Assembly: GCA_016844925.1 (NCBI GenBank)
Contig: JAERTI010000038.1
Span: 2,936-66,935 of the forward strand
Origin: Candidatus Uhrbacteria bacterium
Lineage (GTDB): Bacteria; Patescibacteriota; Patescibacteriia; UBA9934; GWF2-40-263
Direction: 5' to 3'
DNA: 64,000 nucleotides
Made by a program: the position numbers and the translations under genes. This document shows, in pieces, positions 26,305 to 61,848 of the stretch; the stretch's first letter is position 1, and every line of letters starts with the position of its first letter. The notes beneath the pieces are model-generated. The model saw only the letters and a program-made list of their open reading frames with translations. It was not told the DNA's origin and ran no database searches.

Positions 26305-26305
26305 G

Positions 26306-34255: not shown

Positions 34256-34426
34256 GAGTATGTGCATGGTCTGCGGTGATCCTGTTCAGATACAACAAGA
34301 GGTAACGATTGTCGCAAACATGATGCAGGTGTTTGGGTCAATCCCGATCATTGCTATTTTGTCATGGCAAGCCAAGAATTTACTTCAGGCAATCAAAGAA
34401 TTTAAAGCTGGTGTGAGCAAACGATT

Positions 34427-34846: not shown

Positions 34847-35037
34847 TGGGTTGTGTTGAGATACAACCCAGTTTCAACCTACCTCTACAAGTTATTCCCA
34901 GAACACCATCGGTGAAAGCCGGCGGTTTTTTGTATTTATACAGTATGCCTTGCTAACAACCCTAGAGGCTGTTAGGGTACTTGTCCTCGTTAAGCAAACG
35001 TCCTTTTTGGCGTGCTGACTAGGTAGAGGAGGAATAC

Positions 35038-36453: not shown

Positions 36454-36628
36454 TGCTTGTTTATTGAGCGTTCTTGGCTCAGGGTCAAGGGTTTAATGAA
36501 TGGATTCAAGACGCCTGTCACAGTTGTGGCGGGCGCTATTTATTTTGAATCGATTTCACTGCCCCTTGTAACAAGTTACCTTCTTTTGGTTAGTATCTTT
36601 ATACTGTTATTAATGAGATCTATTCTTT

Positions 36629-36907
36629 ATGGATAAACTTATGAAAAAGAACTTACTTTTCCTATTTTTGGGACTCCTTATGATCTTTGCTGTTGTGGCC
36701 TTGATCAGTGCAGGTGGCTCACAAGAGGCTGTGGTGGAGACTGAAGAAACAACTACCAGTACTTCAACTGACACCGTCACACCTGCTTCAACGATTCAAC
36801 AAAAAGATTTTTCATCAGACGGGCCTGGTGGAGAACTGTCAGATGTAGATCAACTAGAGATTCAATGGGGGCTTCCTGGAGATGTGCCGGTCCCAGGCAC
36901 GTATTAA
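36629..36907 (+). CDS. small secreted Thr/Ser-rich protein (92 aa)
   Basis: Signal peptide MKKNLLFLFLGLLMIFAVVALISAGG. Promoter TTGTAA-N17-TTAGTAT upstream. Terminator at about 36908-36950. Confidence 0.55.
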   Translation: MDKLMKKNLLFLFLGLLMIFAVVALISAGGSQEAVVETEETTTSTSTDTVTPASTIQQKDFSSDGPGGELSDVDQLEIQWGLPGDVPVPGTY

Positions 36908-37204
36908 AAAATCACTAAACCACAGTATGTAGAGCTGTGGTTTTATGTTTGCTGTACAAGTTTTTAGTGGCGGAATACGTTGACAAAAGCGTTAAAAAAT
37001 GGTAGTCTCCTTTCCTGGCTTACAATCTGGAACCCACTCTTTCTTCCGTGGAGGAGTGGATACCGATGGGTACTAGAATCCCCAAAAAGCATTCAGAAAC
37101 ACGCATTAGCGGTTCTCCCTCTGTGAGGGATTTAGGACAATTAGTGCGTGTTTTTGGTCACGGAGACCATTGAATGCGATCAAGCCTTCAGTCCAAGAGA
37201 CAAC

Positions 37205-37765
37205 ATGAAGCGTTTTCTGATCCCCATGACCCTTATCCTTACCTCCTGCTTCGAGGGGGGTGCGAGTTTCCCCCTGGGGAAGAGTGGCTACTGCATGGGT
37301 GTTGGTCTGGGAACGGGAGAGGGGAAGCTCGAGTGGCTCGACATCGAGCTCAACGAGTGCATCCCGGAGGGATACTACGGCTGCGACCAGATCGACGTGA
37401 ACTACGATGGGGCCTTCGGTGGAGCGAGTTGCCAGGGGGCGTACGACTTCCCGGATTCCTACACCATGAGCTTCGTCACGTCTCGAGAGGTGACCCTCGC
37501 TGTGGTCTCGTGGGAGACGGACATGATGGACAGTTCTTTCAACGAGATCCTGTACCCTGTCTGGGTGGGTGATTCGAACTACGAGTTCGTCATGCACTTC
37601 CCGAACCCTGGGTACGGATCCGACGGTGACCAGATCGACTACAGCATCGACGTCTACATCGGCAACACGCTGATCGCTGACCCGGTGGTCAGCGCGACGC
37701 TCGACGGCGTCCCCGAAGACGTCGACTACGACGCACGAGACCGCGAGTACAGCTCGAGGTGGTAA
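37205..37765 (+). CDS. lipoprotein, hypothetical; high GC
   Basis: ATG at 37205 gives the lipobox MKRFLIPMTLILTSC. About 170-nt leader containing a 35-codon uORF. Confidence 0.55.
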   Translation: MKRFLIPMTLILTSCFEGGASFPLGKSGYCMGVGLGTGEGKLEWLDIELNECIPEGYYGCDQIDVNYDGAFGGASCQGAYDFPDSYTMSFVTSREVTLAVVSWETDMMDSSFNEILYPVWVGDSNYEFVMHFPNPGYGSDGDQIDYSIDVYIGNTLIADPVVSATLDGVPEDVDYDARDREYSSRW

Positions 37766-37887
37766 ACAAAGACAGGGTCACTACGACCCACACGGCCGTC
37801 ATCTGCCCTCGCGCAGCTGACGGTTTTGTCTTTATCGAACTTGGTCGTTTTTTTGCAAGAATCTTTGAGGACTACTCGTTGAGGGAT

Positions 37888-39428: not shown

Positions 39429-39461
39429 AAAAAACCAATGGAATTAATCCATTGGTTTTTT
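39429..39461. terminator. terminator hairpin aaaaaccaatggaattaatccattggttttttc
   Basis: Perfect stem ccaatgg/ccattgg with an A-run before and a T-run after. Near-duplicate of 42037-42070. Confidence 0.75.
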
Positions 39462-39537
39462 CTTTTTCATGAGATAAGTTGAGCTCGATGTCACAAAATG
39501 AGGTCTAGGTGCATAGTACTTGTGTAGGCCTATTTCT

Positions 39538-40044
39538 ATGAATGAACAAGAAAAGAAAAACCTGTTTTTACGGGAATACTCTAATCTATTTGATTACGTC
39601 TATCGTTACGTTTGTTATCGCGTTCCTCAGAGAGAGGAGGCTGAGGATTTGGTCTCTGAGACGTTCTTGCAAGCGTATCACCGGTTATGGGATTTCGATC
39701 CCTCTCGGGGACAGTTGCGTCAGTGGTTGACGGGAATAGCGAAAAATAAACTGCTCATGCATTGGCGCCGGCGTGTGGTGAGTGTGGATTTGGATGCGGT
39801 TGCAGAGATTCCGGATGGGCAGGAGGGGGAAACGTTGGCACTGCTGGATCATAAGTTAATCGTCGAGAAGCTCTTGGATCATGTGTCTGACGATATGAGC
39901 GCACTCTTAGCATTTCGTTATGTCGATGGGTTGTCCTGCGAAGAGATTGCGGAGATTCTCGGGAAGGAGGCGGCGGCTGTGAGGAAGAGTTTCTCTCGGC
40001 TGCATAAAAAACTTCAGAAGGTTTACGAAGAACACTATGCTTAA
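39538..40044 (+). CDS. ECF-subfamily sigma-70 factor
   Basis: Region 2 (ETFLQAYHRLWDFDP) and region 4 (LSCEEIAEILGKEAAAVRKSFSR). Confidence 0.75.
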   Translation: MNEQEKKNLFLREYSNLFDYVYRYVCYRVPQREEAEDLVSETFLQAYHRLWDFDPSRGQLRQWLTGIAKNKLLMHWRRRVVSVDLDAVAEIPDGQEGETLALLDHKLIVEKLLDHVSDDMSALLAFRYVDGLSCEEIAEILGKEAAAVRKSFSRLHKKLQKVYEEHYA

Positions 40045-42031
40045 GAAAACTTTTACTGAGCGTTACGAGCGTGACCTCAAGTCGATTACCGTGAATGAAA
40101 ACTTGAAGCAGCAGATTGCTTCACAGCTTCAAGTTGAACAAGATGTTCCTGTAAAACAGAAAGCACCTTTACTTACATTAATGCGACCGCTCTTAGGGGT
40201 CGCTGCTACGGCTCTGGTGATTGTGTTGGTTGTTGGGATAGATGCAGAGCAGAACGTAAGCGTACTACCATCTTATGGTGAGCAGGTGGATGATTGGATG
40301 AGTAGAGAAACGGCGGAGTCTGGCGGGGGTAGTGGTCGGGCACTGAGTAATTCTTCTGGATTGGGTTCAGGTCTTAGCTCCATGGGAGGATTCCTCGATT
40401 CATTTTCTGCCACAACTTCATTAGGCTCTGGTTCGGCGCTTTCCAATGAGGCGATCGTCGAGTCTGACTCCATTGGGTTCTCCGTTGGCGGATCAAAGGA
40501 TGTCGATAGTTTCCGTACGAACATTGAGAACGGCTATCTCCCACTGATCGATTCGATTACTTATGAGGGGCTGTTCTATGAATACTTCTTTGAGACAGGT
40601 GCTGCAAAGGAATGCGATGAGTTGTTCTGTCCGTCGTATGCGCAGGCTGTCTCACGAGACCCTCTTTCAGGTGAGGAGGAGTATTACCTCGCGGTCGGTC
40701 TGAACTCCGGTATGAAAGAATCTGATTTTGAGCGGAAGAAGTTAAACTTGGTAATCGTGATGGATATTTCAGGGTCCATGAGTTCGCCGTTCGATCAGTA
40801 TTATTACGACGCTCACGGAAACTACATTGAGGCCGAAGGATACACGTCAGACTCAAAAATGCAGGTGGCGAATGAATCCGTCGTGGGACTCCTTGATCAC
40901 CTCAATGCAGATGATCGTTTGGGAGTCGTGCTGTTTAATAATGGGGCGCATGTAGCAAAGACTGTTCGTTACATCGGTGAAACAGACATGGAGGCACTTC
41001 AGGGGCACATTCTGGACATCAGTCCGGACGGTGGGACAGATATGTCAGAGGGGATGGAAGCGGCGAGTGATTTACTTGCTGAGTTTGAAGGTGTCGATGC
41101 TGATGAGTACGAGAACAGAATTATCTTCATCACCGATGCTATGCCAAACAGTGGTGAAACCTCAAAGGGTGGACTCTTCGATATGGTGGAAGATAATGCC
41201 GACGATGGAATCTATACAACCTTCATTGGAGTGGGGGTAGATTTTCAGGCTGAGCTTGTCGAATCTATGACAAAGGTGCGAGGAGCGAACTATTATTCTG
41301 TGCATTCCTCGAGTGAGTTTAACGAGCGTATGGACGAGGGGTTTGAATACATGGTCACGCCACTTGTGTTCGACTTAGAACTTACGCTTGAGGCAGAAGG
41401 GTATGACATTGAGAACGTCTACGGCTCTCCTGAGGCGGATAAATCTACCGGAGAGATTCTCTATGTGAACACGTTGTTCCCCTCAAAGACGGAAGGGGGA
41501 GAGACACGTGGAGGATTGGTCCTCTTGAAGCTTACGAAGACATCCGAGAATGGAGAGATAAGGCTAAGCGCGAAGTACGAGGATCGTACTGGTGATACAT
41601 TTTCTCACTCGTCGGAGATTGAGTTTGAAGATGTGGAAGCTGGGTCCTATGACAACATGGGCATCCGCAAGGGGATTCTGCTCTCACGGTATGTCGACCT
41701 CATCAAAAATTGGATCATCGATGAGCGCGGAGCTGTGGTGTATGGTGGGGAGGTGGAAGTGAGTCTCGATGATGAGGTGGGTATTATTGCGCCAGATGAT
41801 ATTCCTACGGGGAGCCAGTGGGAACAGACGTCGGTTCCACTCTCTGTCTCAGGGGGCTATCAGGAGATATTTGAACTGTTCTCCGAGTATCTACAATGGG
41901 AGATTGAGGAGATTGGCGATGAGGAGCTCGAGCAGGAGCTTGAATTGCTAGATCTTCTTTTGGACGATGTTGAATATGATGAGGTTGAAGACGGGGTATC
42001 AGGCAACTTCTTTGATGACTGGGATTTTTAG
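40037..42031 (+). CDS. membrane-anchored anti-sigma-like protein with a vWA domain
   Basis: Overlaps the ECF sigma gene by 8 nt. Single TM helix LLGVAATALVIVLVVGI. vWA MIDAS start LNLVIVMDISGSMSS. Confidence 0.65.
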   Translation: MLKKTFTERYERDLKSITVNENLKQQIASQLQVEQDVPVKQKAPLLTLMRPLLGVAATALVIVLVVGIDAEQNVSVLPSYGEQVDDWMSRETAESGGGSGRALSNSSGLGSGLSSMGGFLDSFSATTSLGSGSALSNEAIVESDSIGFSVGGSKDVDSFRTNIENGYLPLIDSITYEGLFYEYFFETGAAKECDELFCPSYAQAVSRDPLSGEEEYYLAVGLNSGMKESDFERKKLNLVIVMDISGSMSSPFDQYYYDAHGNYIEAEGYTSDSKMQVANESVVGLLDHLNADDRLGVVLFNNGAHVAKTVRYIGETDMEALQGHILDISPDGGTDMSEGMEAASDLLAEFEGVDADEYENRIIFITDAMPNSGETSKGGLFDMVEDNADDGIYTTFIGVGVDFQAELVESMTKVRGANYYSVHSSSEFNERMDEGFEYMVTPLVFDLELTLEAEGYDIENVYGSPEADKSTGEILYVNTLFPSKTEGGETRGGLVLLKLTKTSENGEIRLSAKYEDRTGDTFSHSSEIEFEDVEAGSYDNMGIRKGILLSRYVDLIKNWIIDERGAVVYGGEVEVSLDDEVGIIAPDDIPTGSQWEQTSVPLSVSGGYQEIFELFSEYLQWEIEEIGDEELEQELELLDLLLDDVEYDEVEDGVSGNFFDDWDF

Positions 42032-42036
42032 CCCAT

Positions 42037-42070
42037 CAAAAAACCAATGGCATTGCCCATTGGTTTTTTG
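42037..42070. terminator. bidirectional terminator caaaaaaccaatggcattgcccattggttttttg
   Basis: Same ccaatgg/ccattgg stem as 39429-39461. Lies between the anti-sigma gene (+) and the deacetylase-like gene (-). Confidence 0.75.
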
Positions 42071-42076
42071 TTTATT

Positions 42077-43243
42077 CTATTGTGGACATTCTCCCACACG
42101 CTCACACATGTAGTCAGAAACGGTCATGCCAACAAGGAAATCTCGGCTTGCTAACTCCTGAAAGAATGCGTCGAATGCATCAGAGTTTTCTTCGTTCGTG
42201 TCATAGTCCTTGGGGTGGAATACAACATTGATGACACTTGTTGGATCAATGGTTTCTGGATCCAGGGCATCAATGACTTGGAGGATATGTGTCGAGACAG
42301 TCTCGGTGCAGCTGCCAGTTTGTGCCCCAATCCACGTGTGGCCGATAGAGGTAATACCTTGGCCTCGGAGAATGCGTGGAGTGTTTGGGAGCGAGACGGT
42401 GGACCATGTTGGTCGACCACTTGGGCAGTGATTGTTGGGGTCATGAAGCTCTTCGCTGTTGGGGTTGTTGCCATCGTCTCCTGTTTGGTAAATCCATTCT
42501 GGTTGACGATCAACGATGAGGTCTGTTCCTTCAACGGTTCTCGCTATGTGCCCCCATGCATCTTGCCAGTCATTAATAATCTCCATGTACTCATCCATTG
42601 ATTGTGTTTCAAGGTCTGAGTAGATCGAGTGACCGTGTGCTGCTTCTGGGTCGTCGCTGTACCCGTCCCAGTCATTGTGTGTGAAGCCGTGTCGGTGAAT
42701 GGCGAGTTCATGACCGCCGTCGATCATGGATTGAGTGATGGCTATCCCTCTTTCTGATTCAGCAAGGCGCGTGATCCAGTGGATCTGATGCTGAAACGTT
42801 CCTTTGAGGCCAGCATCATCCAGTGCGGCGATCATGCGTTCTAAGCTATCGAGGGAATCTTCCCATTCTTCTTCTGTGACACATCGGGCGCTGGTGTCGT
42901 CACAGACACGAGAAGATGATGATTCCATGTGTATTGAGAGCAAGACAGGGATACCTTCGTTGCTCGTTTTTTCCTCGAGGGTCGGTTCTTCTTCATCAGG
43001 TGGTTCATCGGGTTCAGTTTGTGGTGTGCTCTCTTTTTCTGGTGGCTGGTCAGTGTTTGTTACGACATCTTCGGTAGTTGGTTGGTTTTGACTTGAGACA
43101 TAGAGCCAACCCAATCCTCCGATGATGAGCACGAGGACGACGACGATACCTACGAGTAGTCGCGTGAGATGTTTCTCTTGCTCTGCCTCATTGTCATTAT
43201 TAAGATTCGATGTTTCTTGTGTGGGTGCGTCAGATTCGTTCAT
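42077..43243 (-). CDS. membrane-anchored protein, polysaccharide-deacetylase-like (tentative)
   Basis: N-terminal TM helix, acidic linker, then GGHELAIHRHGFTH-type histidine motifs. Confidence 0.4.
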   Translation of the reverse strand: MNESDAPTQETSNLNNDNEAEQEKHLTRLLVGIVVVLVLIIGGLGWLYVSSQNQPTTEDVVTNTDQPPEKESTPQTEPDEPPDEEEPTLEEKTSNEGIPVLLSIHMESSSSRVCDDTSARCVTEEEWEDSLDSLERMIAALDDAGLKGTFQHQIHWITRLAESERGIAITQSMIDGGHELAIHRHGFTHNDWDGYSDDPEAAHGHSIYSDLETQSMDEYMEIINDWQDAWGHIARTVEGTDLIVDRQPEWIYQTGDDGNNPNSEELHDPNNHCPSGRPTWSTVSLPNTPRILRGQGITSIGHTWIGAQTGSCTETVSTHILQVIDALDPETIDPTSVINVVFHPKDYDTNEENSDAFDAFFQELASRDFLVGMTVSDYMCERVGECPQ

Positions 43244-43346
43244 AGATGTTGTAACAATAAGTGTATGTTCGTGTTCATATACATCAGTATAGCAAGAAAG
43301 TTACATGCTATACTTCGATTAACTTTTTCTTTTTCAAAATGATTCT

Positions 43347-44933
43347 ATGTTGCGCAAGTCCGTTTTTACTCTCTTGGTCATGGCCATAGGTGTGATCAGT
43401 TCCTTTGGTCTCGTTCGCGCCTACGACGCGGAGCTCGCAGAGCGTCTTCATGGCTACATTCTTCTTCAGGTCGAAGAGCATGGTGAGGCCTGGTTTATTC
43501 GCTCATCAGACTCATTGCGCTACTACATGGAAGACGGAGATGCAGCGTACACGATGATGCGATACTTCAGTCTTGGAATTACTGATGAGGATTTGGAGAG
43601 TATTCCATCTGTTGAGGACACATCTGAAATGCTCTCAGCTGAGTCTGTGTGTGATTCAAATGATCTTGCGAGCCGGCTGGCCGGAGAGATTTTGTTGCAA
43701 GTCGAGCAAAACGGTGAGGCTTGGTATGTCTATCCTGGCACGTGTCGCATGATTTACATGGCAGACGGAGATGAGGCTTACACCATCATGCGTTACCTCG
43801 GGTTGGGTATTACAAATGGAGACCTTGAGCTTATTGAAGAGGGGGTCTTGGCGGTCAATGAATACAAAGATTATTCTATTTCTATTTATCCTGATTATTC
43901 AGAGCTCGAGACAGAAGATGGTTACAAGCCGTTCATTCCTTATGGCAATGGTCGCGGAGTACAAGTAACTTCATCGGCGATTGTGACCTTGCAGACCATG
44001 GAGGCGGGGCAAGTATCGGCCATTCAACACGGGCTCGAGGAAGAGGAGGTAACACAGGAGTCCGTTACTGTGGCCGACGGGTCAGGTATGGCGTTTTCAG
44101 CAGCGTCACTTTCCGAGGTGAATGACACACTTCTTGCCGTCTGGCTCTCTCCATCGGGGATCACCACGGGGTTTTCTGTAGATGGGGGAATGCAGTGGGG
44201 TGATGAGGAAGTTCTTACTGAGCGTCCAACAGGCCCATCGGTACCAAGCTCATGTCTTTGGCAGGATGATGAGGGAGAGCTTCGTGGCATGGTGGCCTGG
44301 GTTGATCCTCCAACAAGTGAGGATGGAGGCCCACTGTATGTCGCAGAGTACGAAGGAGGTGCTTGGGGAGATGCTGTGCAGGTGGGGGAAAGTGAGCTGA
44401 TCTCAAGTCCATCACTTGCCTGTTTTTCAGATCACCAGTCTATGGTGTTTCGTCAGGATGGTGACAGTGGCTTACATGTTCACTTCACGCAGCGTCGTGA
44501 CGGTGAGTGGGAAGACCCCGAAGAGATTTTGCTCGGAGCCGATCCACACATGGCAGAGTGTGGTGATGATATTTGGGTGGGGTATCACTGGAACGGTGCA
44601 CGCCGCGGTCACTCCAGTGATGGGGGAGATACGTGGACCTACGAGACCGTCGACAATTCAGGAAAATTTGGATCCATTGCTTGTGAAGGAAATATTGTAG
44701 CCTATCAGTGGGGAGATTACGCTTCGCGGGAGGCGGCAAATACAAAAGACAGTACACAGCGAACGGTCGGCGTTGAGTTGAGTTTCGATGGTGGGGAGAG
44801 CTGGGAGAGTTGGGAACCTGCCGAAGGTGAGATGGAGCAGAGTATTGCTTCTGTGGATGTGTATGACTCAGAGGTGATTATTTTCTGGCGTTCTCCAGAC
44901 AGCATTCGTATAAAACGTTATTCCGGTAATTAG
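43347..44933 (+). CDS. secreted protein with two about 60-aa N-terminal repeats and C-terminal BNR/Asp-box repeats
   Basis: Signal peptide. Internal repeat (ELAERLHGYILLQVEEHGEAWFI.. and LASRLAGEILLQVEQNGEAWYV..). Asp-boxes such as SFDGGESW. Confidence 0.6.
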   Translation: MLRKSVFTLLVMAIGVISSFGLVRAYDAELAERLHGYILLQVEEHGEAWFIRSSDSLRYYMEDGDAAYTMMRYFSLGITDEDLESIPSVEDTSEMLSAESVCDSNDLASRLAGEILLQVEQNGEAWYVYPGTCRMIYMADGDEAYTIMRYLGLGITNGDLELIEEGVLAVNEYKDYSISIYPDYSELETEDGYKPFIPYGNGRGVQVTSSAIVTLQTMEAGQVSAIQHGLEEEEVTQESVTVADGSGMAFSAASLSEVNDTLLAVWLSPSGITTGFSVDGGMQWGDEEVLTERPTGPSVPSSCLWQDDEGELRGMVAWVDPPTSEDGGPLYVAEYEGGAWGDAVQVGESELISSPSLACFSDHQSMVFRQDGDSGLHVHFTQRRDGEWEDPEEILLGADPHMAECGDDIWVGYHWNGARRGHSSDGGDTWTYETVDNSGKFGSIACEGNIVAYQWGDYASREAANTKDSTQRTVGVELSFDGGESWESWEPAEGEMEQSIASVDVYDSEVIIFWRSPDSIRIKRYSGN

Positions 44934-44939
44934 AATCAT

Positions 44940-46187
44940 GTGACATCCCAAACAAAACATCTTATCGCCATCGTTGTTTTACTGATCGTGGCAATTGCTC
45001 TGGGTGCGGCGTACTACTTTAGATCTGCAGAGGGGCTGCAATACACCATCCCGCTTTTTGAAGAAGAGGTGGATTTGCTGGAACCCGATGTCGAAGATGA
45101 CCTCTCGCAAGAGCCCGTCGTCGAGGAAGAGCGCGCTCCTTCGATCTATCCATCCTATTCATTCATTGCTACACCAGACACGACGCGTCCCGGCGTGCCC
45201 TTTGGCAATGGGACAGGGGTGCAGATTGTTGACGATGCGATTGTGACAGTTCATTCAGAAAATAGAGCGCTCTACGTTACACGTCACCAGCTGATTGATG
45301 ATGAGGTTGTTGCTCAGAGCACTGAACTTTCCTATGAAGGATCGTGGTCAACCCCTGGAGCGCTTTCAGAATCTGATGAGTCCCTGGTGTTTCTCTATCT
45401 GACGGATAAGGGAATGTATACGCGTATGTCTGATGATGGGGGTTTGAGCTGGAATGAGCCAGTTCGTGTCGGAGAGAATCCGGTGGGCCCAGCAACACCA
45501 TCTGCGTGTCTGTGGCATGAAGATGGTGAACTCCGTTCGCTCATCGCTTGGGTTGCCCCTCCGCAATCTGGCGATGGTGGACCCGTGTATGTTGGTGAGT
45601 GGGATGGTGAGGGTTGGGAGGTTGTCGAAGTAGGTGACTTCTCTTATGCCTCAAGCCCGTCGCTTGATTGCGACGAGGGGCAGCAGTCAATAGTGTTGCG
45701 TGTGGCCGCTGAGGCGGGATCAACTTCTGAGATCGATCTCTACTTTGCCCGGCGAGATGCTGCAGGGAATTGGCCAGAGCCAGAATATGTCTTTGCTGGA
45801 GCAGATCCACATCTGGCTGTGTGCGATGAGCAATACTGGATCGGCTATCACCACAGGGGATACAGCTACGCTTCTTCACAGGATGCAGGCGAGAGTTGGG
45901 AGAAGACTTCTATTAGCACAACATCAAAGTTCGGTTCTATTTCATGTGATGGAGATGTCGTTGTGACGAGTTGGGGGCTGTGGCCGACACTGCGCCAGGC
46001 GAACGAGCGAGATCCTGATACAAGACAGCTGAGTGCACAAGTGAGTTTTGATAACGGTGAGACCTGGCAGAGCTGGGCACCAGTGGGAGAGGAGACGGGG
46101 CACGGTACGGCATCTTCGGATGTGGTTGAGGGGGCGATCGTTCTTTTTTGGAGATCACCAGAGGGCGTGCACGTGGCGACGTACTAG
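44940..46187 (+). CDS. secreted BNR/Asp-box repeat protein, paralog of the upstream gene
   Basis: Shares PSACLWHEDGELRSLIAWVAPPQSGDGGPVYV with the PSSCLWQDDGELRGMVAWVDPPTSEDGGPLYV of the upstream protein. Asp-boxes SDDGGLSW and SFDNGETW. Confidence 0.6.
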   Translation: MTSQTKHLIAIVVLLIVAIALGAAYYFRSAEGLQYTIPLFEEEVDLLEPDVEDDLSQEPVVEEERAPSIYPSYSFIATPDTTRPGVPFGNGTGVQIVDDAIVTVHSENRALYVTRHQLIDDEVVAQSTELSYEGSWSTPGALSESDESLVFLYLTDKGMYTRMSDDGGLSWNEPVRVGENPVGPATPSACLWHEDGELRSLIAWVAPPQSGDGGPVYVGEWDGEGWEVVEVGDFSYASSPSLDCDEGQQSIVLRVAAEAGSTSEIDLYFARRDAAGNWPEPEYVFAGADPHLAVCDEQYWIGYHHRGYSYASSQDAGESWEKTSISTTSKFGSISCDGDVVVTSWGLWPTLRQANERDPDTRQLSAQVSFDNGETWQSWAPVGEETGHGTASSDVVEGAIVLFWRSPEGVHVATY

Positions 46188-46194
46188 CGCGAGA

Positions 46195-46229
46195 AATGAA
46201 AAAGCATCAGATTAATCTGATGCTTTTTG
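46195..46229 (+). terminator. rho-independent terminator after the BNR paralogs
   Basis: aaaaagcatcagattaatctgatgcttttt. Confidence 0.8.
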
Positions 46230-46231
46230 TA

Positions 46232-46260
46232 TTGACAGGGCGACGATTCACGGGTATATA
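46232..46260 (+). promoter_or_regulatory. consensus sigma70 promoter TTGACA-N17-TATATA driving the HIT gene, followed by a leader hairpin (46265-46290)
   Basis: TTGACA gggcgacgattcacggg TATATA, then gatgtctccctaagtcggttcttagggggg, then TAGGAGCAAAC ATG. Confidence 0.65.
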
Positions 46261-46325
46261 GATGTCTCCCTAAGTCGGTTCTTAGGGGGGCTGGTTCAAA
46301 TGGGAATGGTCCCATAGGAGCAAAC

Positions 46326-46757
46326 ATGAGCGCGTCTCGACGGAAAATCTTCCTCGACATCCTCGCTGGCGAGAGTCGGTGTGTGAAGGTCTATGAGGAC
46401 GAGTACTGTCTCGCGATTCTCAACATCTTCCCGCACAAGCCTGGGCACGTCCTGGTTCTGCCCAAGCGGACCGACGCGACCAACGTGTTGGAGATGAATG
46501 TGGGTCTCTTTGCCCGCCTCATGCAGGTGGCGCAGTACATCACCCCGCACGTCATCAAGGCGATGGGGGCGGACGCAGCGAAGATCGACATGAGCACCGG
46601 TCCGGCAGCAGGTCTGCTCATCGACTACCCGCACGTGCACATCATCTGCTACAAGCAGGGGCAGTACACCCCGCGCCCTTCCTCGGACCCCGGCTGGCGA
46701 GTCCTGGAGGAAGACGGCGAGAAGATCCGAGCCGCCATCTCTGGCGCTCTGGACTGA
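46326..46757 (+). CDS. HIT-family (Hint-branch) protein with a degenerate histidine triad (HVHII instead of HxHxH); high GC
   Basis: IFLDILAGESRCVKVYEDEYCLAILNIFPHKPGHVLVLPKR matches the HIT N-terminal pattern. The triad region reads DYPHVHIICYK. Terminator at 46760-46787. Confidence 0.65.
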   Translation: MSASRRKIFLDILAGESRCVKVYEDEYCLAILNIFPHKPGHVLVLPKRTDATNVLEMNVGLFARLMQVAQYITPHVIKAMGADAAKIDMSTGPAAGLLIDYPHVHIICYKQGQYTPRPSSDPGWRVLEEDGEKIRAAISGALD

Positions 46758-46817
46758 GTCACGCACCCGATACGCGGGTGCTTTTTGATTGTAGAAAAAA
46801 TCCTAGCCACGTGTTGG

Positions 46818-47273
46818 CTAGGTGGTCCTCACAACGGTGATGGGTGAGGGGTCGAGGGTGTCCAGCTCCAAAGGGTGGGGCCCTTCCGTGAAGATCACGG
46901 ACAATCCCTTCTTCTCTCTCGAACTAACGAGGGAGAAGAGATCGCCGTTGCTGAGAAAGTGCTTCTGTCCTTTTGCCAGGCGCGAACCCTTGCGCCAGAC
47001 GCCGTTTTTGGACAGGTCGGCGATGACCCACATGTTTAAGGCAGCTGGCCTAATCACCATGTGGAGCCTGCTGAGTTTTCCCATGAGTTCCGGGTGGGAC
47101 CAGGGCTCACGAGCGAACTGGAGATGGGCACGATGCATTCCGTCGTGCATGTTCGGGGCCGGGTAGTGATCCCTGCCCACTGATACACCACTGTCCGGCA
47201 GGTCGTTTTCCAGGAACGCTTGTCCCTTCCAACACCATACGAGTTTAGGCACCACGAGTCCTTTCGTCAGCAA
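46818..47273 (-). CDS. FHA-domain protein (C-terminal FHA-like), intermediate GC
   Basis: VSVGRDHYPAPNMHDGMHRAHLQF...VIADLSKNGVWRKGSRL...NGDLFSL follows the FHA core pattern. The stop codon sits inside the hairpin cctagccacgtgttggctagg, which is followed by T6 on the minus strand. Confidence 0.5.
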   Translation of the reverse strand: MLTKGLVVPKLVWCWKGQAFLENDLPDSGVSVGRDHYPAPNMHDGMHRAHLQFAREPWSHPELMGKLSRLHMVIRPAALNMWVIADLSKNGVWRKGSRLAKGQKHFLSNGDLFSLVSSREKKGLSVIFTEGPHPLELDTLDPSPITVVRTT

Positions 47274-47427
47274 GCGGATAGCCTAAGTGAGTTTTATCAC
47301 AGAAGGTTTGTGGGAGCCAACGGGTATGCATATCAGGCTCAAAAAAGTTTTCAAAATGAAGACCCCGTACCAGACAGGCAGGGGGCCTTCATCTGATGCG
47401 GGGTTCGTTACCGCGTACGGTGATGCG

Positions 47428-47820
47428 TCAGTCGGTGAAGGGCCAGGTGGGCACCTCGTCGAGCTTCGCCAGCTGAGCGTCGATCTCGACCAGCGCCTGG
47501 TTGAACGCGCGCTGGTGCTCGTACTCCCTGATCAAGCCCGGGATGATTCCGCAGAGCATGTGCAGGAGGCTGGTGAGGTTGAAGCCGGCGATCCAGTTTC
47601 GGATCCACTCCATCTTGGTCGTGGACTGGGTCAGGGTGAGCGTCTTGGGTCCACCGTCTTCTTCGCTGGTGTCCGGTCGGAGGATGAAGCTGAGCTCCGT
47701 GATCTCCCAACCCATGATCTGATGCGCCTCATCGTGATCTGTGGCGATGTGGTGCGTGAGCTTCAGAATGAGGCGCAGTTCGCCCACATCCTCGCTGATC
47801 TCGTGCAGTTCCTGTCGCAT
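47428..47820 (-). CDS. hypothetical protein (130 aa); high GC
   Basis: ATG at 47818-47820 (reverse strand) with AGGAG 5 nt upstream. The 5'UTR is near-identical to that of the HIT gene. Confidence 0.5.
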   Translation of the reverse strand: MRQELHEISEDVGELRLILKLTHHIATDHDEAHQIMGWEITELSFILRPDTSEEDGGPKTLTLTQSTTKMEWIRNWIAGFNLTSLLHMLCGIIPGLIREYEHQRAFNQALVEIDAQLAKLDEVPTWPFTD

Positions 47821-47865
47821 GTGTGCTCCTAGTTGGCCATGCATGTTTCGAAAAAGAAACATCTA

Positions 47866-47894
47866 TATATACCAGAAAATAAGCTTTTTGTCAA
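47866..47894 (-). promoter_or_regulatory. consensus promoter TTGACA-N17-TATATA for the 130-aa gene, followed by the leader hairpin atgtttctttttcgaaacat
   Basis: Minus strand: TTGACA aaaagcttattttctgg TATATA gatgtttc...TAGGAGCACAC ATG. Confidence 0.6.
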
Positions 47895-47960
47895 TCCAAA
47901 GAGGCTAAAATAAAAGAAAAAACGGATCACAATGATCCGTGGCGTGTGTTCGTGGATGAA

Positions 47961-48929
47961 CTAGAGCAGGCCTTCTTGCCGGTACCAGTCAATGGCTCTG
48001 GTGAGCCAGGCTTGGGTTGGTTCCGGGTGCCAGTCCAGTTCCTCGCGGGTTCGTTCGCAGAGGAAGTCTGCGTTGTCGCGGAGCATGGCTTGAACCTTTT
48101 CCGTGCCCATGGGGGTGGCCTTGCGTCCTGTCCGGTGACAGGTCCAGGTGATGACCTTTGCGAGGGAGAGAGCGAGCCAGCCTGGCAGGATGCGAGCGCG
48201 CTTGATGCGGGTTCCAAGCGCGAGCTCCAGCTGGAGGTACAGCTCCTCGGTTGTGTAGCTGTCTGCCGTGAGGGTGTAGATGCCGCGATGGGTCCCACGT
48301 TCACCGGCGGCGATGATGCCGCGCACGCAGTCGTCGATCGAGAGCAGGTAGAACGTGCTCTGGACGAATGCGGGGAGTGAGCCCTTGGCCATGGCCAGCA
48401 TGATCTTGGCGGAGCCTCCGAGGCGACGGCCCTGTACGGATGCCGGGCGCACGATGACGACCTCGGGTCCTTCGGGCCCCAGGTTTTGAACCACCGTCTC
48501 TGCGCAGAGCTTGGTGTGACCGTAGGCAGATCCTCGGAAGTCGGATGCGCCTGTGACACTCTTCTGCGAGATGGCCGTGACGCTGCTGATGTAGACGAGC
48601 CGCTTCACCTCTGCGCGCCGCATGGCTTCGCAAACGATCTGGGTTCCAAGCCCGTTCACCTTCCACATCTCCCCGACCTCTTGAGGGGGGAGATCCCATC
48701 CGTTGATGCCGGCCAGGTGGTAGACCACTTGGCAGCCTCGCATCATCTTGGTGAGCTGTCCGGTGTTGAACAGGTCTCCGTGCACGGCTTGGGCGCCTGC
48801 AGCCTCGACGGTTGCGGCGGCATCTTCTGAGCGGACGAGGGCGATCACGTCGTGGTGTTCACTCAGGGCGCGGATCAGCGATTCGCCGATGAATCCGCTT
48901 CCTCCGGTGATGAATACTCGTGAGTTCAC
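47961..48929 (-). CDS. NAD-dependent epimerase/dehydratase (extended SDR family); high GC
   Basis: FITGGSGFIG Rossmann motif right after a GTG start at 48927-48929 with AAGGAGGAACC upstream. YxxxK-like SAYGHTK. Terminator acggatcacaatgatccgt at 47922-47940. Confidence 0.7.
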   Translation of the reverse strand: MNSRVFITGGSGFIGESLIRALSEHHDVIALVRSEDAAATVEAAGAQAVHGDLFNTGQLTKMMRGCQVVYHLAGINGWDLPPQEVGEMWKVNGLGTQIVCEAMRRAEVKRLVYISSVTAISQKSVTGASDFRGSAYGHTKLCAETVVQNLGPEGPEVVIVRPASVQGRRLGGSAKIMLAMAKGSLPAFVQSTFYLLSIDDCVRGIIAAGERGTHRGIYTLTADSYTTEELYLQLELALGTRIKRARILPGWLALSLAKVITWTCHRTGRKATPMGTEKVQAMLRDNADFLCERTREELDWHPEPTQAWLTRAIDWYRQEGLL

Positions 48930-49054
48930 GGTTCCTCCTTCATGCGTGTGCATGCGCCGTATCTGTACCATATGTTACGGCCCTGTCAATGGATTTGTCG
49001 TATCATGCGAAGTTTTCCTCTTGAGATTTCGCCATTTTCTGGCATAGTAGGGCC

Positions 49055-50311
49055 ATGAGTGAAGATGTGTACGACATAATTGTCATAGGGGGTGGACCCT
49101 CTGGCATGATGGCTGCGGGTCGGGCTGGTGAGCTCGGTGCCCGCGTTTTGCTTTTAGAGAAGAATGATCGTCTGGGGAAGAAGTTGAGTATTACGGGGGG
49201 ACGTCGATGTAACATCACCAATGCTGAGTACGACAACCGTTTGTTCCTCGATAGCTTTCCCGAGTCAAAACAGTTTTTGTTCTCACCGTTCTCTCAGTTT
49301 AATGTCGAGAGTACGTTCGAGTTTTTTGAAGAGCGTGGACTGCCGCTCGTTGTCGAAGAGCGTAAGCGCGCCTTCCCTAAGTCGCAGAAGGCGGAGGATG
49401 TGTGTACGACTCTCAAAGAATATGTCGAAGAGAGTGGAAATGTCACGGTGAAGCTGTCTGTGACCGTGGAGTCGTTTGTTCTCGTCGATAAGGAACTCAA
49501 GGGAGTGCGTACATCTGCAGGAGAGTTTCTCGGTTCAAAGATTGTGGTCGCAACCGGTGGGCTCGCTGCGCCTGAGACAGGGTCGACGGGGGAGGGGCTT
49601 TCCATGCTCGCACAGATTGGTCACAAGGTAGACGATCCAGATCCGAACCTGGCACCACTGCGCACATCGTCTAAGTGGGTGCATCAGCTCTCTGGTGTCA
49701 CTGTCGACGATATGACGCTCCGGTTTATGCAAAATGGTAAGACGGCGCACAAGGCGCGTGGGCGATTGTTGTTTACCCACTTTGGCATCTCAGGTCCGCT
49801 CGTGATCAATTCAGCGCATAAAGTAAAAACGTTGCTCAAGCAGGGGGCACTCACCGCATCGGTCGATTTGTTTCCAGATCACGACCTTGGAAGCTTGGAT
49901 ACATTTTTTATCGAGCTGTTTGAGCAGCAGAAAAAGAAGACTCTTAAAAATGTTCTCAAGGAGGTTCTCCAGAAGAAACTTAGTGAGAGTGTTCTGAACA
50001 GGCAGGATTTACGTATTGGCGATCTTCCTGTGCACGAGATTTCACGGGACCAGCGCAAACTCCTTGTGCGTACACTCAAAGACTTAAACTTTCCCATCAC
50101 GGGCACTATGGGGTTTGAGTGGTCGATTGTGGCTGATGGGGGCGTTGAACCTAAGGAGGTGGATTTTCGCTCTATGACCTCTCGATTGTTTCCGAACCTG
50201 TATCTCATTGGTGACACGCTGAACATTAATCGACCCTCAGGAGGGTTCTCGCTCCAGCTTTGTTGGACCACTGGTTGGGTGGCGGGAACGCATGCCGCAC
50301 AGGCAGACTAG
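49055..50311 (+). CDS. HI0933/YhiN-like FAD-dependent oxidoreductase (aminoacetone-oxidase family)
   Basis: YDIIVIGGGPSGMMAAGRA FAD motif and a KLSITGGRRCNITN segment. Confidence 0.7.
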   Translation: MSEDVYDIIVIGGGPSGMMAAGRAGELGARVLLLEKNDRLGKKLSITGGRRCNITNAEYDNRLFLDSFPESKQFLFSPFSQFNVESTFEFFEERGLPLVVEERKRAFPKSQKAEDVCTTLKEYVEESGNVTVKLSVTVESFVLVDKELKGVRTSAGEFLGSKIVVATGGLAAPETGSTGEGLSMLAQIGHKVDDPDPNLAPLRTSSKWVHQLSGVTVDDMTLRFMQNGKTAHKARGRLLFTHFGISGPLVINSAHKVKTLLKQGALTASVDLFPDHDLGSLDTFFIELFEQQKKKTLKNVLKEVLQKKLSESVLNRQDLRIGDLPVHEISRDQRKLLVRTLKDLNFPITGTMGFEWSIVADGGVEPKEVDFRSMTSRLFPNLYLIGDTLNINRPSGGFSLQLCWTTGWVAGTHAAQAD

Positions 50312-50316
50312 ATGCT

Positions 50317-52116
50317 ATGCCACATCCACTTCTTGAAGGGCGACAGCTCAGAAAAAAATATGGACTGCAGACCGTGCTCGACGGCCTGTCATTTCTTGTA
50401 ACAGAAAAACAGAAAGTGGCACTCATTGGTCGCAACGGAGCAGGGAAGTCGACATTGTTGAAATTGATTACTGGCGCAGAGCAGCCTGATGGCGGAGAAG
50501 TATTTTTCTACCCGCAGACACGCCTCGGGGTGGTGAAGCAGCATGAGGAGCTTCCTGATGAGGGGACGGTCTTGGAGTATCTCGAGGCAGGGAGCGGGAA
50601 GCAGGAGTGGGAAGTGAAAAAGCAGGCAGCGCAGTTTGGGTTGCAGCAGGGTCATTTAGCGCAGGTACCAGCGAGTCTCTCTGGTGGATATCAGATGCGT
50701 GTGAAGCTGGTGGCGATGTTGCTTGAAGACCCGAATCTTTTGCTGCTCGATGAGCCGGTCAACTATCTGGACCTGCAGACATTGATTCTTCTTGAGCGGT
50801 TCCTGCAGTCTTATAAGGGAAGCTTTATTATCGCCGCGCACGACCGGACGTTTTTGCAGAATACGTGTACACACACGTTTGAGATCGAGCGAGCTGGTCT
50901 GACGAGCTATAAGGGGTCGGTGCAAGAGTATTTGGAATTCAAAGAGCAGCAGCGTGAGTATGAACTGAGTGCGAATAAAAAACTGGCGAAGGAAATTGCG
51001 CACCAGCAGAAATTCGTCGATCGGTTTCGCTATAAGGCATCGTTGGCTACACGTGCACAGAGCAAGATTAAGCACATCACCAAGCTGCGCAACAAGATTA
51101 CAGCGATCGATGCGGCGCTCGCGACCGTCTCGATGACGATCCCGTCACCACGCGTCGTTGCGGGTACGGCGATACGGGTCGAGGGATTAACGATTGGGTA
51201 CGGCGACCTGGTGATTGCGGATGGCATTGATTTTGAAATTCAGCGCGGTGACAAGATTGTGATTGCCGGAGAGAACGGCCGAGGAAAGTCGACACTTCTT
51301 AAGACCCTCGCAGGTCGTATCGAATCTTTGAGTGGGAGTTATAAATGGTGGCATCGTGCAGACATTGGGTATTACGATCAAAAGACCGAGGCGACGCTCA
51401 AACCATCGGAGACCGTGCTCCAGCACCTCACGCGCTTGGCACCGGCTGATGCTTCGGGGGAGCGGATTCTCATGATGGCAGGGAACTTCTTGTTCAAGGG
51501 AGATGATCTCGACAAGTCCACGAGTGTGCTTTCGGGAGGAGAGCGCGCACGGCTGTGTCTTGCGGGAGTGCTTCTGCACGAGCATAACGTCTTGCTACTA
51601 GATGAGCCGACCAACCACTTGGACGTCGAGACAACAGAAGCACTGGCGTTGGCTCTGAGCAAGTACGAGGGGACCGTGATTTTTGTCTCTCACGCTCGGA
51701 CGTTTGTGAATACGCTCGCGGAAAAGATTTTTGAAGTGCGCAACGGAACCGTGAGGAGATACATGGGGACGTATGAGGAGTACGTCGAAGACCTTGCCGC
51801 GCTTACAAGTGCATCGACAAAAGAGGAGGCCCAGGTGGAGCAGGGGGCTAAGGAGATGAATGCCGCCCAACGCGCCGAGTATCAGACACGGGTGAAAGAA
51901 CACCAGCGTTCACAAGAGAGGATTGATAAGAAGATGAAAAAACTTGATGGGGAGAAGAGTGAGATCCTGGCGTACTTCTTTGAGAACCCAACGGACTACG
52001 CGCCCGTGAAGGCCCAGCGTTTGAGTGAACTTGATCAGCAGATTGAAGCGTTGGAGCTGGCTTGGGTGGAGGATCAGGAGTCCATCGATGAGTTACGAAT
52101 AAAATTGAATCATTAG
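50317..52116 (+). CDS. ABC-F family ATPase (tandem ABC domains, no TM domain)
   Basis: Two Walker A motifs (GRNGAGKST, GENGRGKST) and two LSGG signatures separated by a linker. Confidence 0.8.
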   Translation: MPHPLLEGRQLRKKYGLQTVLDGLSFLVTEKQKVALIGRNGAGKSTLLKLITGAEQPDGGEVFFYPQTRLGVVKQHEELPDEGTVLEYLEAGSGKQEWEVKKQAAQFGLQQGHLAQVPASLSGGYQMRVKLVAMLLEDPNLLLLDEPVNYLDLQTLILLERFLQSYKGSFIIAAHDRTFLQNTCTHTFEIERAGLTSYKGSVQEYLEFKEQQREYELSANKKLAKEIAHQQKFVDRFRYKASLATRAQSKIKHITKLRNKITAIDAALATVSMTIPSPRVVAGTAIRVEGLTIGYGDLVIADGIDFEIQRGDKIVIAGENGRGKSTLLKTLAGRIESLSGSYKWWHRADIGYYDQKTEATLKPSETVLQHLTRLAPADASGERILMMAGNFLFKGDDLDKSTSVLSGGERARLCLAGVLLHEHNVLLLDEPTNHLDVETTEALALALSKYEGTVIFVSHARTFVNTLAEKIFEVRNGTVRRYMGTYEEYVEDLAALTSASTKEEAQVEQGAKEMNAAQRAEYQTRVKEHQRSQERIDKKMKKLDGEKSEILAYFFENPTDYAPVKAQRLSELDQQIEALELAWVEDQESIDELRIKLNH

Positions 52117-53167: not shown

Positions 53168-54172
53168 ATGTCGACACTTTTAGAAAAAGCCGTGAAGAAC
53201 CTCGGGGATACCGTTACGCACGCGATTGAATTTACCTCTGATGCGCGAGCCGTGGTGGTGTATGACGATGATTCGGTTCTGTCGAAGACGCTCACGCAGG
53301 CGTACGGACAGGTTCTTCCAGAACAGACGTTTTTGTTGTTTAGGGATCTTGGAGCGGAAGACATCATGAAACAGATCGAAGCCCTCTCACCAGGGGATCT
53401 TGTTATTCTTGTGCAGTCCACAAACTTCCGTCTGAACGAGTTCCGGATTCGTATTGAGTTGTTTAAACGAGGGCTCAAGACTATCGAACACGCGCATCTC
53501 GACAGGTTTGATGAGGATCAGCTCGAGCGCTACATCGATACGCTTGCGTACGATCCTGACTACTATCGTCCACTCGGCCACGCACTCAAGAAGCGCGTCG
53601 ATGCGTGCAAAAAGATTACCGTGACATGTCCAGGGACGACGCTTGTTTACGACAGTCCTTTTGAAGAAGCACGTCTCAACATCGGCGACTACTCGCAGAT
53701 GAAAAACGTCGGTGGGACGTTTCCTATCGGGGAAGTGTTCTCCGAGCCGGCAGATCTCTCTCAGGTCAACGGTGAGGTTCGCATCTTTGCGTATCCAGGA
53801 AAGGATCATATTCTCCGCGAGTGTGAACCGTTCACAGCGCTGATTAAAGATGGAATCCTTTCGGCACCAGATGGCCCTGAGGGGTTCAAGGAGATGCTTG
53901 AGATGATCGAAGAAAAATCACCCGTGCATGTTCGTGAATTTGGTCTCGGACTGAATCCTGCGATCGGCAAGGGGAGAATCATTAACGATGTGACGGCGTT
54001 TGAGCGCATGAGAGGCCTTCATCTTTCACTTGGGTCAAAGCATTCCATTTATAAAAAGCCAGGACTCCCTCGTAAGGCAGCTGGATATCATATTGATGTC
54101 TTTCTTGATCTCGAGCAGATCAAGATTGATGACGAGGTAGTATTTGAGAACGATCGGTATACGGTGTCGTAG
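53168..54172 (+). CDS. hypothetical protein, possibly an M29-type aminopeptidase relative (tentative)
   Basis: EFGLGLNP and HIDVF motifs recall thermophilic metalloprotease relatives. Weak. Confidence 0.35.
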   Translation: MSTLLEKAVKNLGDTVTHAIEFTSDARAVVVYDDDSVLSKTLTQAYGQVLPEQTFLLFRDLGAEDIMKQIEALSPGDLVILVQSTNFRLNEFRIRIELFKRGLKTIEHAHLDRFDEDQLERYIDTLAYDPDYYRPLGHALKKRVDACKKITVTCPGTTLVYDSPFEEARLNIGDYSQMKNVGGTFPIGEVFSEPADLSQVNGEVRIFAYPGKDHILRECEPFTALIKDGILSAPDGPEGFKEMLEMIEEKSPVHVREFGLGLNPAIGKGRIINDVTAFERMRGLHLSLGSKHSIYKKPGLPRKAAGYHIDVFLDLEQIKIDDEVVFENDRYTVS

Positions 54173-61775: not shown

Positions 61776-61848
61776 GGCAGTCCCTTTCTCTCCGCGGTAG
61801 GCGAAGATTTGAACCTACTGTGTGTAGTTGATTATGTCAATAAAAAAT

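Follow-up and report, generated by a model that had tools for sequence, protein, structure and literature searches.

Similar expression signals before GC-rich genes of an uncultured Patescibacteria bacterium: a probable lineage consensus at self-contained accessory units

Introduction

Why should unrelated genes in one stretch of a bacterial chromosome be preceded by similar promoter, leader and ribosome-binding site (RBS) strings? The question is raised by a 64,000-nt stretch of contig JAERTI010000038.1 (the window, meaning the whole stretch analysed), where a GC-rich gene of the HIT family and a GC-rich gene for a protein of 130 amino acids (aa) face each other on opposite strands. The original prediction held that such genes share near-identical expression modules, as would be expected for engineered cassettes or a promoter-carrying mobile module. 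The analysis reported here gives a probability of about 0.7 to a plainer reading, in which the shared strings are mainly the promoter and Shine-Dalgarno (SD) consensus of the lineage, standing before self-contained GC-rich accessory genes. The earlier observation is therefore mostly ordinary, in that it largely rediscovers a promoter and RBS consensus. The genes are native-style expression units of a known kind (sigma-70 promoter, SD, islands resembling those formed by horizontal gene transfer, HGT). Modestly new are the lineage-specific form of the consensus and the division of the genes by SD and by cytosine content at third codon positions (C3).

The chromosome segment and its relatives

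The window belongs to the chromosome of an uncultured bacterium of the Patescibacteria, or candidate phyla radiation (CPR), and its nearest loci are in metagenome-assembled genomes (MAGs) of Parcubacteria and 'Uhrbacteria'. In a protein-guided scan with one genome per species, the nearest relatives of the HI0933-like gene at 49055-50311 were found in Patescibacteria/CPR MAGs, with 81% aa identity in a Parcubacteria bin and 76% in 'Candidatus Uhrbacteria' bins. A sister species represented by at least nine environmental assemblies (L010-L018) is 88-93% (about 92%) identical to the window in nucleotide sequence, and keeps the order of the HIT gene, the 130-aa gene and a neighbouring epimerase gene. 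A more distant relative, L019, has the divergent HI0933/epimerase pair, with an epimerase 60% identical. Three contigs labelled 'uncultured Gammaproteobacteria' (L005, L007 and L008) have synteny, 67-69% HI0933 identity and the promoter consensus in common with the CPR loci, and their label looks doubtful.

The backbone of the window has a GC content of ~48-52% and carries housekeeping genes, mainly in long co-directional plus-strand operons, among them holB, frr, a class II aminoacyl-tRNA synthetase gene, tpiA, genes for an ABC-F protein, cobW and BipA, and four tRNA genes. It is broken up by ~10 short segments of 58-67% GC, referred to below as islands, with ~17 genes inside, mostly single and mostly on the minus strand.

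Given that the sister-species assemblies and CPR MAGs carry matching loci, the sequence is natural and not a construct. The layout of strong -35 box, 17-nt spacer, 5' hairpin, SD, terminator and codon-biased coding sequence (CDS) is superficially modular, as in an engineered or synthetic construct. However, the genes with their promoters, the mosaic of islands and the syntenic GC-rich orthologs recur in environmental assemblies and MAGs that different projects obtained independently, and the orthologs diverge normally, including compensatory changes in a leader hairpin. Positions 40000-52000 gave no megablast match to 72,556 plasmid records, vector similarity included, or to phages. Engineering, which the original prediction had named as one source of the shared parts, and assembly chimerism can thus be given practically no weight.

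A promoter consensus across the lineage

Every TTGACA-N17-TA in eight genomes of the family was collected, with selection on those bases alone, and the resulting 32 sites give the consensus TTGACA-AAA-(G/C)-T-run-GG-TAnnnT with a 17-nt spacer. The last base of the -10 hexamer, which was not selected, is T in 29 of the 32. A occupies spacer positions 1-3 in 20-24 of the sites, a G/C patch and T-rich positions 9-13 come next, and a G stands 2 nt before the -10 hexamer in 22. In the window, 13 of 18 TTGACA sites are intergenic, where intergenic DNA makes up 14.7% of the sequence (P = 6e-8), and each intergenic site examined is directed towards the start of a gene, a tRNA or non-coding sequence with no other assignment. 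For example, tRNA-Tyr is preceded by TTGACC-17-TAGTAT at 19122, and the BipA gene by TTGACA-17-TATACT at 57918, the latter being conserved in L010 and in another relative, L001.

In the relatives, ordinary genes of backbone type have consensus promoters as well, with short leaders. The promoter of the 130-aa gene is close to the textbook form and agrees at 26 of 29 positions (hand count) with a promoter of the distant genome L005 to which it is unrelated. When orthologous promoters were compared, the -35 hexamer, the -10 region and the SD persisted and the spacers diverged, as in phylogenetic footprints. Since the spacers diverge freely and the hexamers stay, functional constraint accounts for the pattern, and copy-and-paste does not. 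TTGACA-N17-TAnnnT is accordingly, as far as sequence can tell, the lineage-wide housekeeping (sigma-70-type) promoter.

A survey of bacteria that includes one CPR species describes conserved spacer features, namely an A/T tract next to the -35 box and a G-rich stretch next to the -10 box (PMC12641261), and these general features agree with the lineage consensus. Common to both are TTGACA, the 17-nt spacer, TAnnnT, the A-tract after the -35 box and G(G) before the -10 box. The T-run of the preceding terminator occupies the place of the A/T-rich UP-like region of sigma-70/sigma-A promoters. Unlike the surveyed promoters, those of this lineage have an unusually invariant -35 box and a weak -10 box in which only TA...T is conserved.

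Nearly every GC-rich insert had been said to carry TTGACA or TTGACC with 17-nt spacing, in a form better than the promoters of the backbone. By hand counts, such a site stands before 12 of the 17 island genes and before 2 of 23 backbone transcription-unit starts (Fisher P = 1e-4). Scored with an E. coli-type sigma70 position weight matrix, island and backbone promoters differ little (medians 8.5 and 7.6, P = 0.08).

Signals of the HIT and 130-aa genes

The elements on which the comparison of these two genes rests are as follows.

46199-46228, plus strand: intrinsic terminator hairpin, read from the sequence, of the upstream BNR/Asp-box gene (44940-46187); its T-run abuts the HIT promoter
46232-46237, plus strand: TTGACA, -35 hexamer of the HIT gene
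46253-46265, plus strand: block GGTATATAGATGT, common to the 130-aa promoter, holding the -10-like TATATA at 46255-46260 (17 nt from the -35 hexamer) and the YAGATG motif
46264-46321, plus strand: two hairpins in the 5' leader of the HIT gene (46264-46291; 46294-46321), the second reaching the SD with its outer helix
46315-46325, plus strand: HIT RBS block TAGGAGCAAAC with SD GGAG; ATG at 46326
46326-46757, plus strand: HIT-family gene, 143 aa (Pfam PF01230, E = 2e-17), GC at third codon positions (GC3) 0.82
46763-46786, plus strand: intrinsic terminator of the HIT gene, conserved in L010
47364-47378, minus strand: weak terminator-like hairpin after the 130-aa gene, its flank kept in L010
47428-47820, minus strand: 130-aa gene, GC3 0.85, genus-restricted, with a single cluster of 95%-identical homologs on sister-species contigs only
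47821-47831, minus strand: 130-aa RBS block TAGGAGCACAC, identical in L010; ATG at 47820
47843-47862, minus strand: 130-aa leader hairpin ATGTTTC-TTTTTC-GAAACAT, weak, AU-rich and without sequence kinship to the HIT hairpins
47859-47873, minus strand: block GGTATATATAGATGT, common to the HIT promoter; TATATA 17 nt from the -35 hexamer
47889-47894, minus strand: TTGACA, -35 hexamer of the 130-aa gene, with the spacer AAAAAGCTTATTTTCTG close to the lineage consensus

The closest homolog of the HIT protein beyond the genus is 41% identical. The 130-aa protein has no Pfam or PHROG match, and its AlphaFold model, with a predicted local distance difference test (pLDDT) score of 47.6, was too poor for a fold search. 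Exact-protein look-ups with the HIT, 130-aa and P0002 proteins of the window returned no match.

The strings said to be shared by the two genes are present, and both have GGAG at positions -9 to -6, with a predicted duplex of -6.5 kcal/mol with the anti-SD ACCUCCUUA. 'Near-identical modules', though, overstates the likeness, as the spacers and leaders are unrelated. The promoter blocks GGTATATAGATGT and GGTATATATAGATGT differ by an extra TA in the latter and agree over 11 nt exactly, or 13 nt with a 2-nt indel; the longest exact strings common to the upstream regions are likewise 11-13 nt. The 15-nt spacers are identical at 5 positions. Between the -10 hexamer and the start codon lie 65 nt of leader in the HIT gene and 45 nt in the 130-aa gene (94 and 74 nt, respectively, from the -35 hexamer to the ATG). 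Two strong hairpins give the HIT leader a minimum free energy (MFE) of -30.8 kcal/mol (z = -4.98), and its hairpin 1 is kept in L010 through a compensatory T-A to C-G double change (by eye). The 46-nt 130-aa leader has an MFE of -7.5 kcal/mol, a centroid (hairpin only) of -6.3 and z = -0.5. A search of 46150-49100, which holds the HIT, 130-aa and epimerase leaders, with Rfam covariance models found no relevant match at E <= 1; the hairpin 46199-46228 gave one signal only, a terminator-like partial CsrC match.

Pairwise alignment of the 120-nt upstream regions gave the HIT/130-aa pair a score of 18, which ranks third or fourth among 1378 pairs and lies within the null maxima of 16-23. In individual blocks the pair stands out. 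The RBS blocks are identical in register at 10 of 11 positions and at 15 of the last 20 nt, making this the top pair (P = 0.03 for 11 nt and 0.02 for 20 nt, from column-preserving shuffles among island genes), and the -10 regions score 12 as compared with 9 for the next pair (P = 0.04, column shuffle). The HIT and 130-aa signals thus resemble each other beyond the consensus, at P of about 0.02-0.04 per block.

Part of this resemblance extends to the sister species. The L010 counterpart of GGTATATATAGATGT is GGTATAAACAGATGT, and the HIT and 130-aa promoters of L010 are alike across the -35 hexamer, the spacer (10/15) and GGTAnAnACAGATGT. The L010 HIT ortholog has GAAGGATGATC, not TAGGAGCAAAC, as its RBS, so that the identity with the 130-aa RBS is missing there. 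Homology of the HIT promoter to the sister species starts at 46256, i.e. within the promoter; the -35 hexamer and spacer are non-homologous because 4.2 kb of other genes lie upstream in the window.

Chance would be a sufficient source of the resemblance beyond hexamers and SD if the whole-region alignment, which stays within the null range, the unrelated spacers and leaders, the missing RBS identity in L010 and single-block P values of only 0.02-0.04 were all that had to be explained. Yet the two genes form the top pair in two independent blocks, their promoters are alike in L010, and the motif reaches the neighbouring epimerase promoter, which makes coincidence very unlikely.

The two facing promoters were also considered as terminal inverted repeats of a 1.66-kb element. 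This was rejected because the match is limited to the hexamers and 11-13 nt, the FHA gene inside is missing from the sister species and a target-site duplication is lacking. A generic promoter scan missed both sites because it demands T as the last -10 base.

A further string, said to stand directly before the start codons of a 'cyclase' gene and a COG0523 gene, concerns two other genes.

17564-17638, minus strand: expression region of the 'cyclase' gene, with TTGACA at 17633-17638, a 17-nt spacer, TATTGT and the SD AAAGGAGGCAACGG (17577-17564) before the ATG at 17563
28852-28972, plus strand: expression region of the COG0523 gene, with TTGACA at 28852-28857, the -10-like TAGTTT 18 nt downstream, the SD AGGGAGGCAACG (28961-28972) and a TTG start at 28973

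The string is present, with a 1-nt difference in register, but it amounts to GGAGG plus CAACG, which is about chance level among 136 SD-bearing pairs (estimate). The COG0523 gene has a Pfam cobW domain. No Pfam match at E <= 1e-3 was obtained for 15671-17563, and the 'cyclase' label reflects a motif resemblance only.

An additional motif at three neighbouring promoters

The resemblance includes a third gene, adjacent to the 130-aa gene.

47922-47940, minus strand: intrinsic terminator of the epimerase gene
47961-48929, minus strand: NAD-dependent epimerase/dehydratase gene, 322 aa, GC3 0.76 (Pfam PF01370, E = 1e-28)
48930-48989, minus strand: epimerase expression region, with TTGACA (-35) at 48984-48989, GGTACAGAT at 48961-48969 and the SD GAAGGAGGAACC at 48930-48941

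In three species the gene forms a divergent pair with the HI0933-like gene, and its orthologs are 95% (L010) and 60% (L019) identical, all others being at most 33%. Its promoter has ATTGACAGGGC in common with the HIT promoter, and candidate -10 hexamers are TACAGA at 16 nt or ACAGAT at 17 nt from the -35 hexamer. The corresponding promoters read TTGACA-N15-CTACAGATGC in L010 and TTGACG-N17-AAAGAT in L019, where AAAGAT keeps its distance from the -35 hexamer. In the window and in L010, TTGAC-N15-19-TA-(<=6 nt)-YAGAT occurs only at the HIT, 130-aa and epimerase promoters. Unlike the surveyed sigma-70/sigma-A promoters, these three have candidate -10 hexamers ending in A, plus YAGAT(G); on top of the lineage consensus they carry an extra element, TAYAnA followed by YAGAT(G), around the predicted -10 region and start site. 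A real additional relationship thus links the promoters of this three-gene island.

The motif would stem either from an ancestor common to the three promoters within one island or from a regulatory or sigma-specific determinant that they share, and the data fit both alike. Taken further, the second possibility would make the three genes a small regulon, with TAYAnA-YAGAT(G) as an alternative-sigma element or a start-site operator. It would account for the restriction of the motif to three adjacent promoters, for its conservation in L010 despite spacer divergence, for the equal distance of AAAGAT from the -35 hexamer in L019 and for the way in which all three promoters break the family rule of a final T in the -10 hexamer. 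However, the distance from the -35 hexamer to YAGAT varies (17, 20 and 22 nt in the window; 17, 22 and 22 nt in L010), as would not be expected of a fixed sigma contact, and a motif of 5-6 nt would arise by chance at three sites with a probability of ~0.1 after correction for motif choice (estimate). The 130-aa and HIT genes are absent beside the L019 epimerase gene, and no regulator was identified. A shared regulon is therefore a tentative and rather unlikely explanation, and the lineage consensus, with this extra element upon it, is preferred.

GC-rich genes as a compositional and translational class

The island genes differ from the backbone mainly at third codon positions. Their GC contents at the first, second and third positions are 0.62, 0.43 and 0.83, as compared with 0.59, 0.38 and 0.50 in the backbone, and C3 is 0.49 versus 0.20 with guanine at that position nearly unchanged. 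The GC excess is thus almost wholly synonymous and C-biased. The HAD-like, 127-aa and 141-aa orthologs in L001 and the epimerase in L019 also have GC3 above that of their own backbones, and the C3 bias is therefore old or maintained. Beyond the lineage, homologs are either remote or missing, so that a recent donor cannot be named. Recent HGT from a high-GC donor with a sequenced genome was considered and rejected, the best non-genus homologs being 41% identical for HIT and, after the one 60% relative, at most 33% for the epimerase.

The same genes are set apart by their translation signals. The median anti-SD duplex is -8.4 kcal/mol for 17 island genes and -2.0 kcal/mol for 36 backbone genes (P = 4e-7), and duplexes of -5 kcal/mol or stronger occur at 82% of island genes, 8% of backbone genes and 18% of random positions. 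L010 and L019, whose genes were called independently, have this split too, as do the L001 orthologs. The base before the start codon is usually C or G in the 17 GC-rich genes and usually T before the ATG in the 36 backbone genes, whose upstream regions are AT-rich and SD-less. Leaderless transcription was considered as the cause of the SD-less backbone and rejected, there being no clear TAnnnT peak 5-9 nt before backbone starts.

A few genes of Bacteroidota have kept an SD that the majority are without, and leaderless or AT-rich, unstructured initiation occurs in other phyla. The window resembles such a mixture of SD-led and SD-independent genes, in that most native genes are SD-less with AT-rich upstream regions and a minority have a strong SD 6-10 nt before the start. 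Here, by contrast, this minority coincides with a compositional class of C3-rich, monocistronic accessory genes; in the literature searched, no description of such a coincidence was found for CPR.

The claim that the high-GC genes are self-contained expression units stands, each having its own promoter, leader, SD and terminator. The proposed order of such a unit is the intrinsic terminator of the neighbour, a housekeeping-sigma promoter, a leader of 30-70 nt, the SD, the CDS and the unit's own terminator. The neighbour's terminator would isolate the gene, and the housekeeping sigma factor would transcribe it from the consensus-like promoter. A 5' hairpin, present and stable in some leaders, could stabilise the transcript, and the SD would drive translation. 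We infer from the sequence that the promoters and RBSs are active and that ribosomes use the latter. The consensus is most visible before island genes because these need their own signals, the backbone genes being mostly operon-internal and SD-less.

Several points weigh against explaining the shared strings by the consensus. The predicted promoters and RBSs were assigned by consensus only. The consensus alone leaves unexplained both the scarcity of canonical -35 boxes before backbone transcription units (2/23) and the identity of the HIT and 130-aa RBSs (P about 0.02-0.03). The -10 hexamers of these two genes, taken at 17-nt spacing, end in A and are 2 of only 3 exceptions among the 32 family sites, which makes the true -10 register, or the sigma factor, uncertain. 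The SD contrast is inflated by the choice of island starts partly by their RBS, although it persists at P = 0.001 when the best of all alternative starts is used. No rRNA gene occurs in the window or in the loci compared with it, and the 3' end of the 16S rRNA lies outside the window.

Gain, loss and possible exchange of units

At least one GC-rich gene has been gained or lost as a unit. The cassette lies between two terminators in the window and is absent from the sister species.

46787-47346, minus strand: FHA-domain cassette, with ~90 nt of 5' non-coding sequence, the SD-like GAAAGGAC, the CDS at 46818-47255 (GC3 0.73) and a terminator at 46802-46822

The gene matches Pfam FHA (E = 1e-6). 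Relative to L010 the unit is a clean indel, and its non-coding ends have a backbone-like GC content (by eye). Segments 42031-46255, 26305-35818 and 36586-37878 are also absent from L010 at the corresponding places; conversely, the window lacks L010 15310-16791, which holds a GC-rich 388-aa gene with a strong SD. Following the VWA terminator, the left junction has the sequence TATTGTGGACA, similar to TATTGACA at the right junction.

Reuse of parts in front of unrelated cargo, on which the original prediction was built, was found in one instance. Window 61776-61900 and L001 17275-17400 are homologous in terminator, T-run, -35 hexamer, leader and RBS, and the downstream proteins are unrelated: a 204-aa NrtR-like winged helix-turn-helix protein in the window and a 178-aa lipoprotein-like protein in L001. 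One orthologous promoter, leader and RBS thus precede different genes in two genomes. Direct repeats of 29-33 nt (16689-16717 and 17337-17365), which comprise a terminator hairpin, T-run and ATTGAC and are 93% identical, stand on either side of the L001 178-aa gene.

On these grounds the GC-rich genes might be mobile single-gene expression cassettes moving among related CPR genomes, with cargo inserted, deleted or swapped by recombination at the junction of terminator T-run and ATTGACA, or within promoter, leader and RBS. The FHA indel, the start of HIT homology inside the promoter, the repeats around the 178-aa gene, the homologous signals before the 204-aa and 178-aa genes and the further units that differ between the window and L010 are what such exchange would produce, and HGT mostly among Patescibacteria is documented (PMC12455944). 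But each phenomenon is represented by one example, other indel junctions have no such repeats, and the epimerase, HAD-like and 141-aa units keep a stable synteny from species to species. The same picture would result from ordinary recombination, illegitimate or homologous, within intergenic DNA.

The search for mobility determinants bears on this too. No integrase or transposase domain and no attC-like repeat was seen among the open reading frames (ORFs) scanned, no search with attC models being made. Nor was any repeat family found to cover promoters in the window, whether as multi-copy repeats, miniature inverted-repeat transposable elements, insertion sequences or Correia-like elements. With promoter features that match the lineage-wide consensus and HIT RBS sharing that is missing in the sister species, a promoter-carrying mobile module, as originally proposed, is not supported. 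Exchange of single-gene cassettes by the routes above is unlikely, and a lineage consensus before self-contained genes again accounts better for the shared strings.

Integron cassettes are normally promoterless and arrayed, and the Correia elements of Neisseria are promoter-bearing repeats. The present units resemble both in being single-gene units in intergenic DNA, one of which, in a relative, is bounded by short direct repeats. They differ from both in that no integrase, attC, terminal inverted repeat or multi-copy repeat family was seen, and from integron cassettes also in being scattered on both strands, each with a promoter.

Genomic islands have been described in Patescibacteria, together with the HGT mentioned above (PMC12455944). 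Like those islands, the GC-rich genes are compositionally atypical accessory genes that vary between close relatives, mostly without identifiable non-CPR donors. Unlike them, they are single genes with complete native-style signals, some of which are syntenic and GC3-rich across species with protein identities as low as 60%. A phage origin of the island genes is unsupported: neither a 472-aa protein (GC3 0.98) compared with viral contigs nor ten island ORFans compared with PHROGs gave a match. The 141-aa protein, used alone and as an alignment, found no relatives in metagenome contigs.

Other features of the window

Genes with a GC3 of 0.98-1.00 (1766-2527 and 3133-4551) occupy the minus strand of the first island (1-5200), together with several small ORFs on that strand. 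A 53-nt sequence containing palindromes is present there as a direct repeat (342-394 and 852-904, 89%), a TATCTAGATGAC motif recurs at 2606- and 5171-, and the genes share an RBS string peculiar to the island, GA(A)GGA(G)ACTGAC(A)C-ATG. Its genes have no Pfam, PHROG or viral-contig relatives. The adjoining 570 nt (5200-5768) have stops in all frames, and a minus-strand consensus promoter (TTGACA at 5628, 17 nt, TAGTAT) points inward; this stretch may encode an unannotated RNA, and a comparison with Rfam gave no match at E <= 1.

Two other consensus promoters have no obvious gene close by. At 19367-19620, TTGACA-17-TATTGT directly follows tRNA-Thr and faces the 3' end of a 194-aa gene; at 36980-37204, TTGACA-17-TAGTCT lies ~200 nt before the start of a 186-aa gene, implying a long leader or a small RNA. 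The 10-mer ACGGTGT(A/C)GT occurs exactly three times (8348-8357, 32941-32950 and 54161-54170; ~0.24 expected, estimate), each time within an operon of the backbone and 0-5 nt ahead of the start codon of an internal gene. GGUG being able to pair with the anti-SD CACC, the 10-mer may serve in coupling or initiation. The terminators at 39429-39468 and 42038-42077 have a common stem, AAAAAACCAATGG...CCATTGGTTTTTT, and are 73% identical over 40 nt.

Implications

The compositional islands of this chromosome are native-style expression units and not raw foreign DNA, and the analysis yields a concrete promoter consensus, backed by comparison, for a clade of uncultured Patescibacteria, useful for annotation and heterologous expression. 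It also raises the question of why SDs and canonical -35 boxes are confined to C3-rich accessory genes. A doubtful answer would be two expression 'dialects', an SD-less operon backbone of ~50% GC and C3-rich, SD-led units that circulate among related genomes as ready-to-express cassettes. If this is true, recombination at the terminator/-35 junction or in the leader and RBS would swap cargo behind resident signals, and the GC3 excess would last long without amelioration, as in the epimerase, HAD-like and 141-aa orthologs. The SD/C3 split, should it prove genome-wide, would bear on how accessory genes are expressed and exchanged in reduced symbionts.

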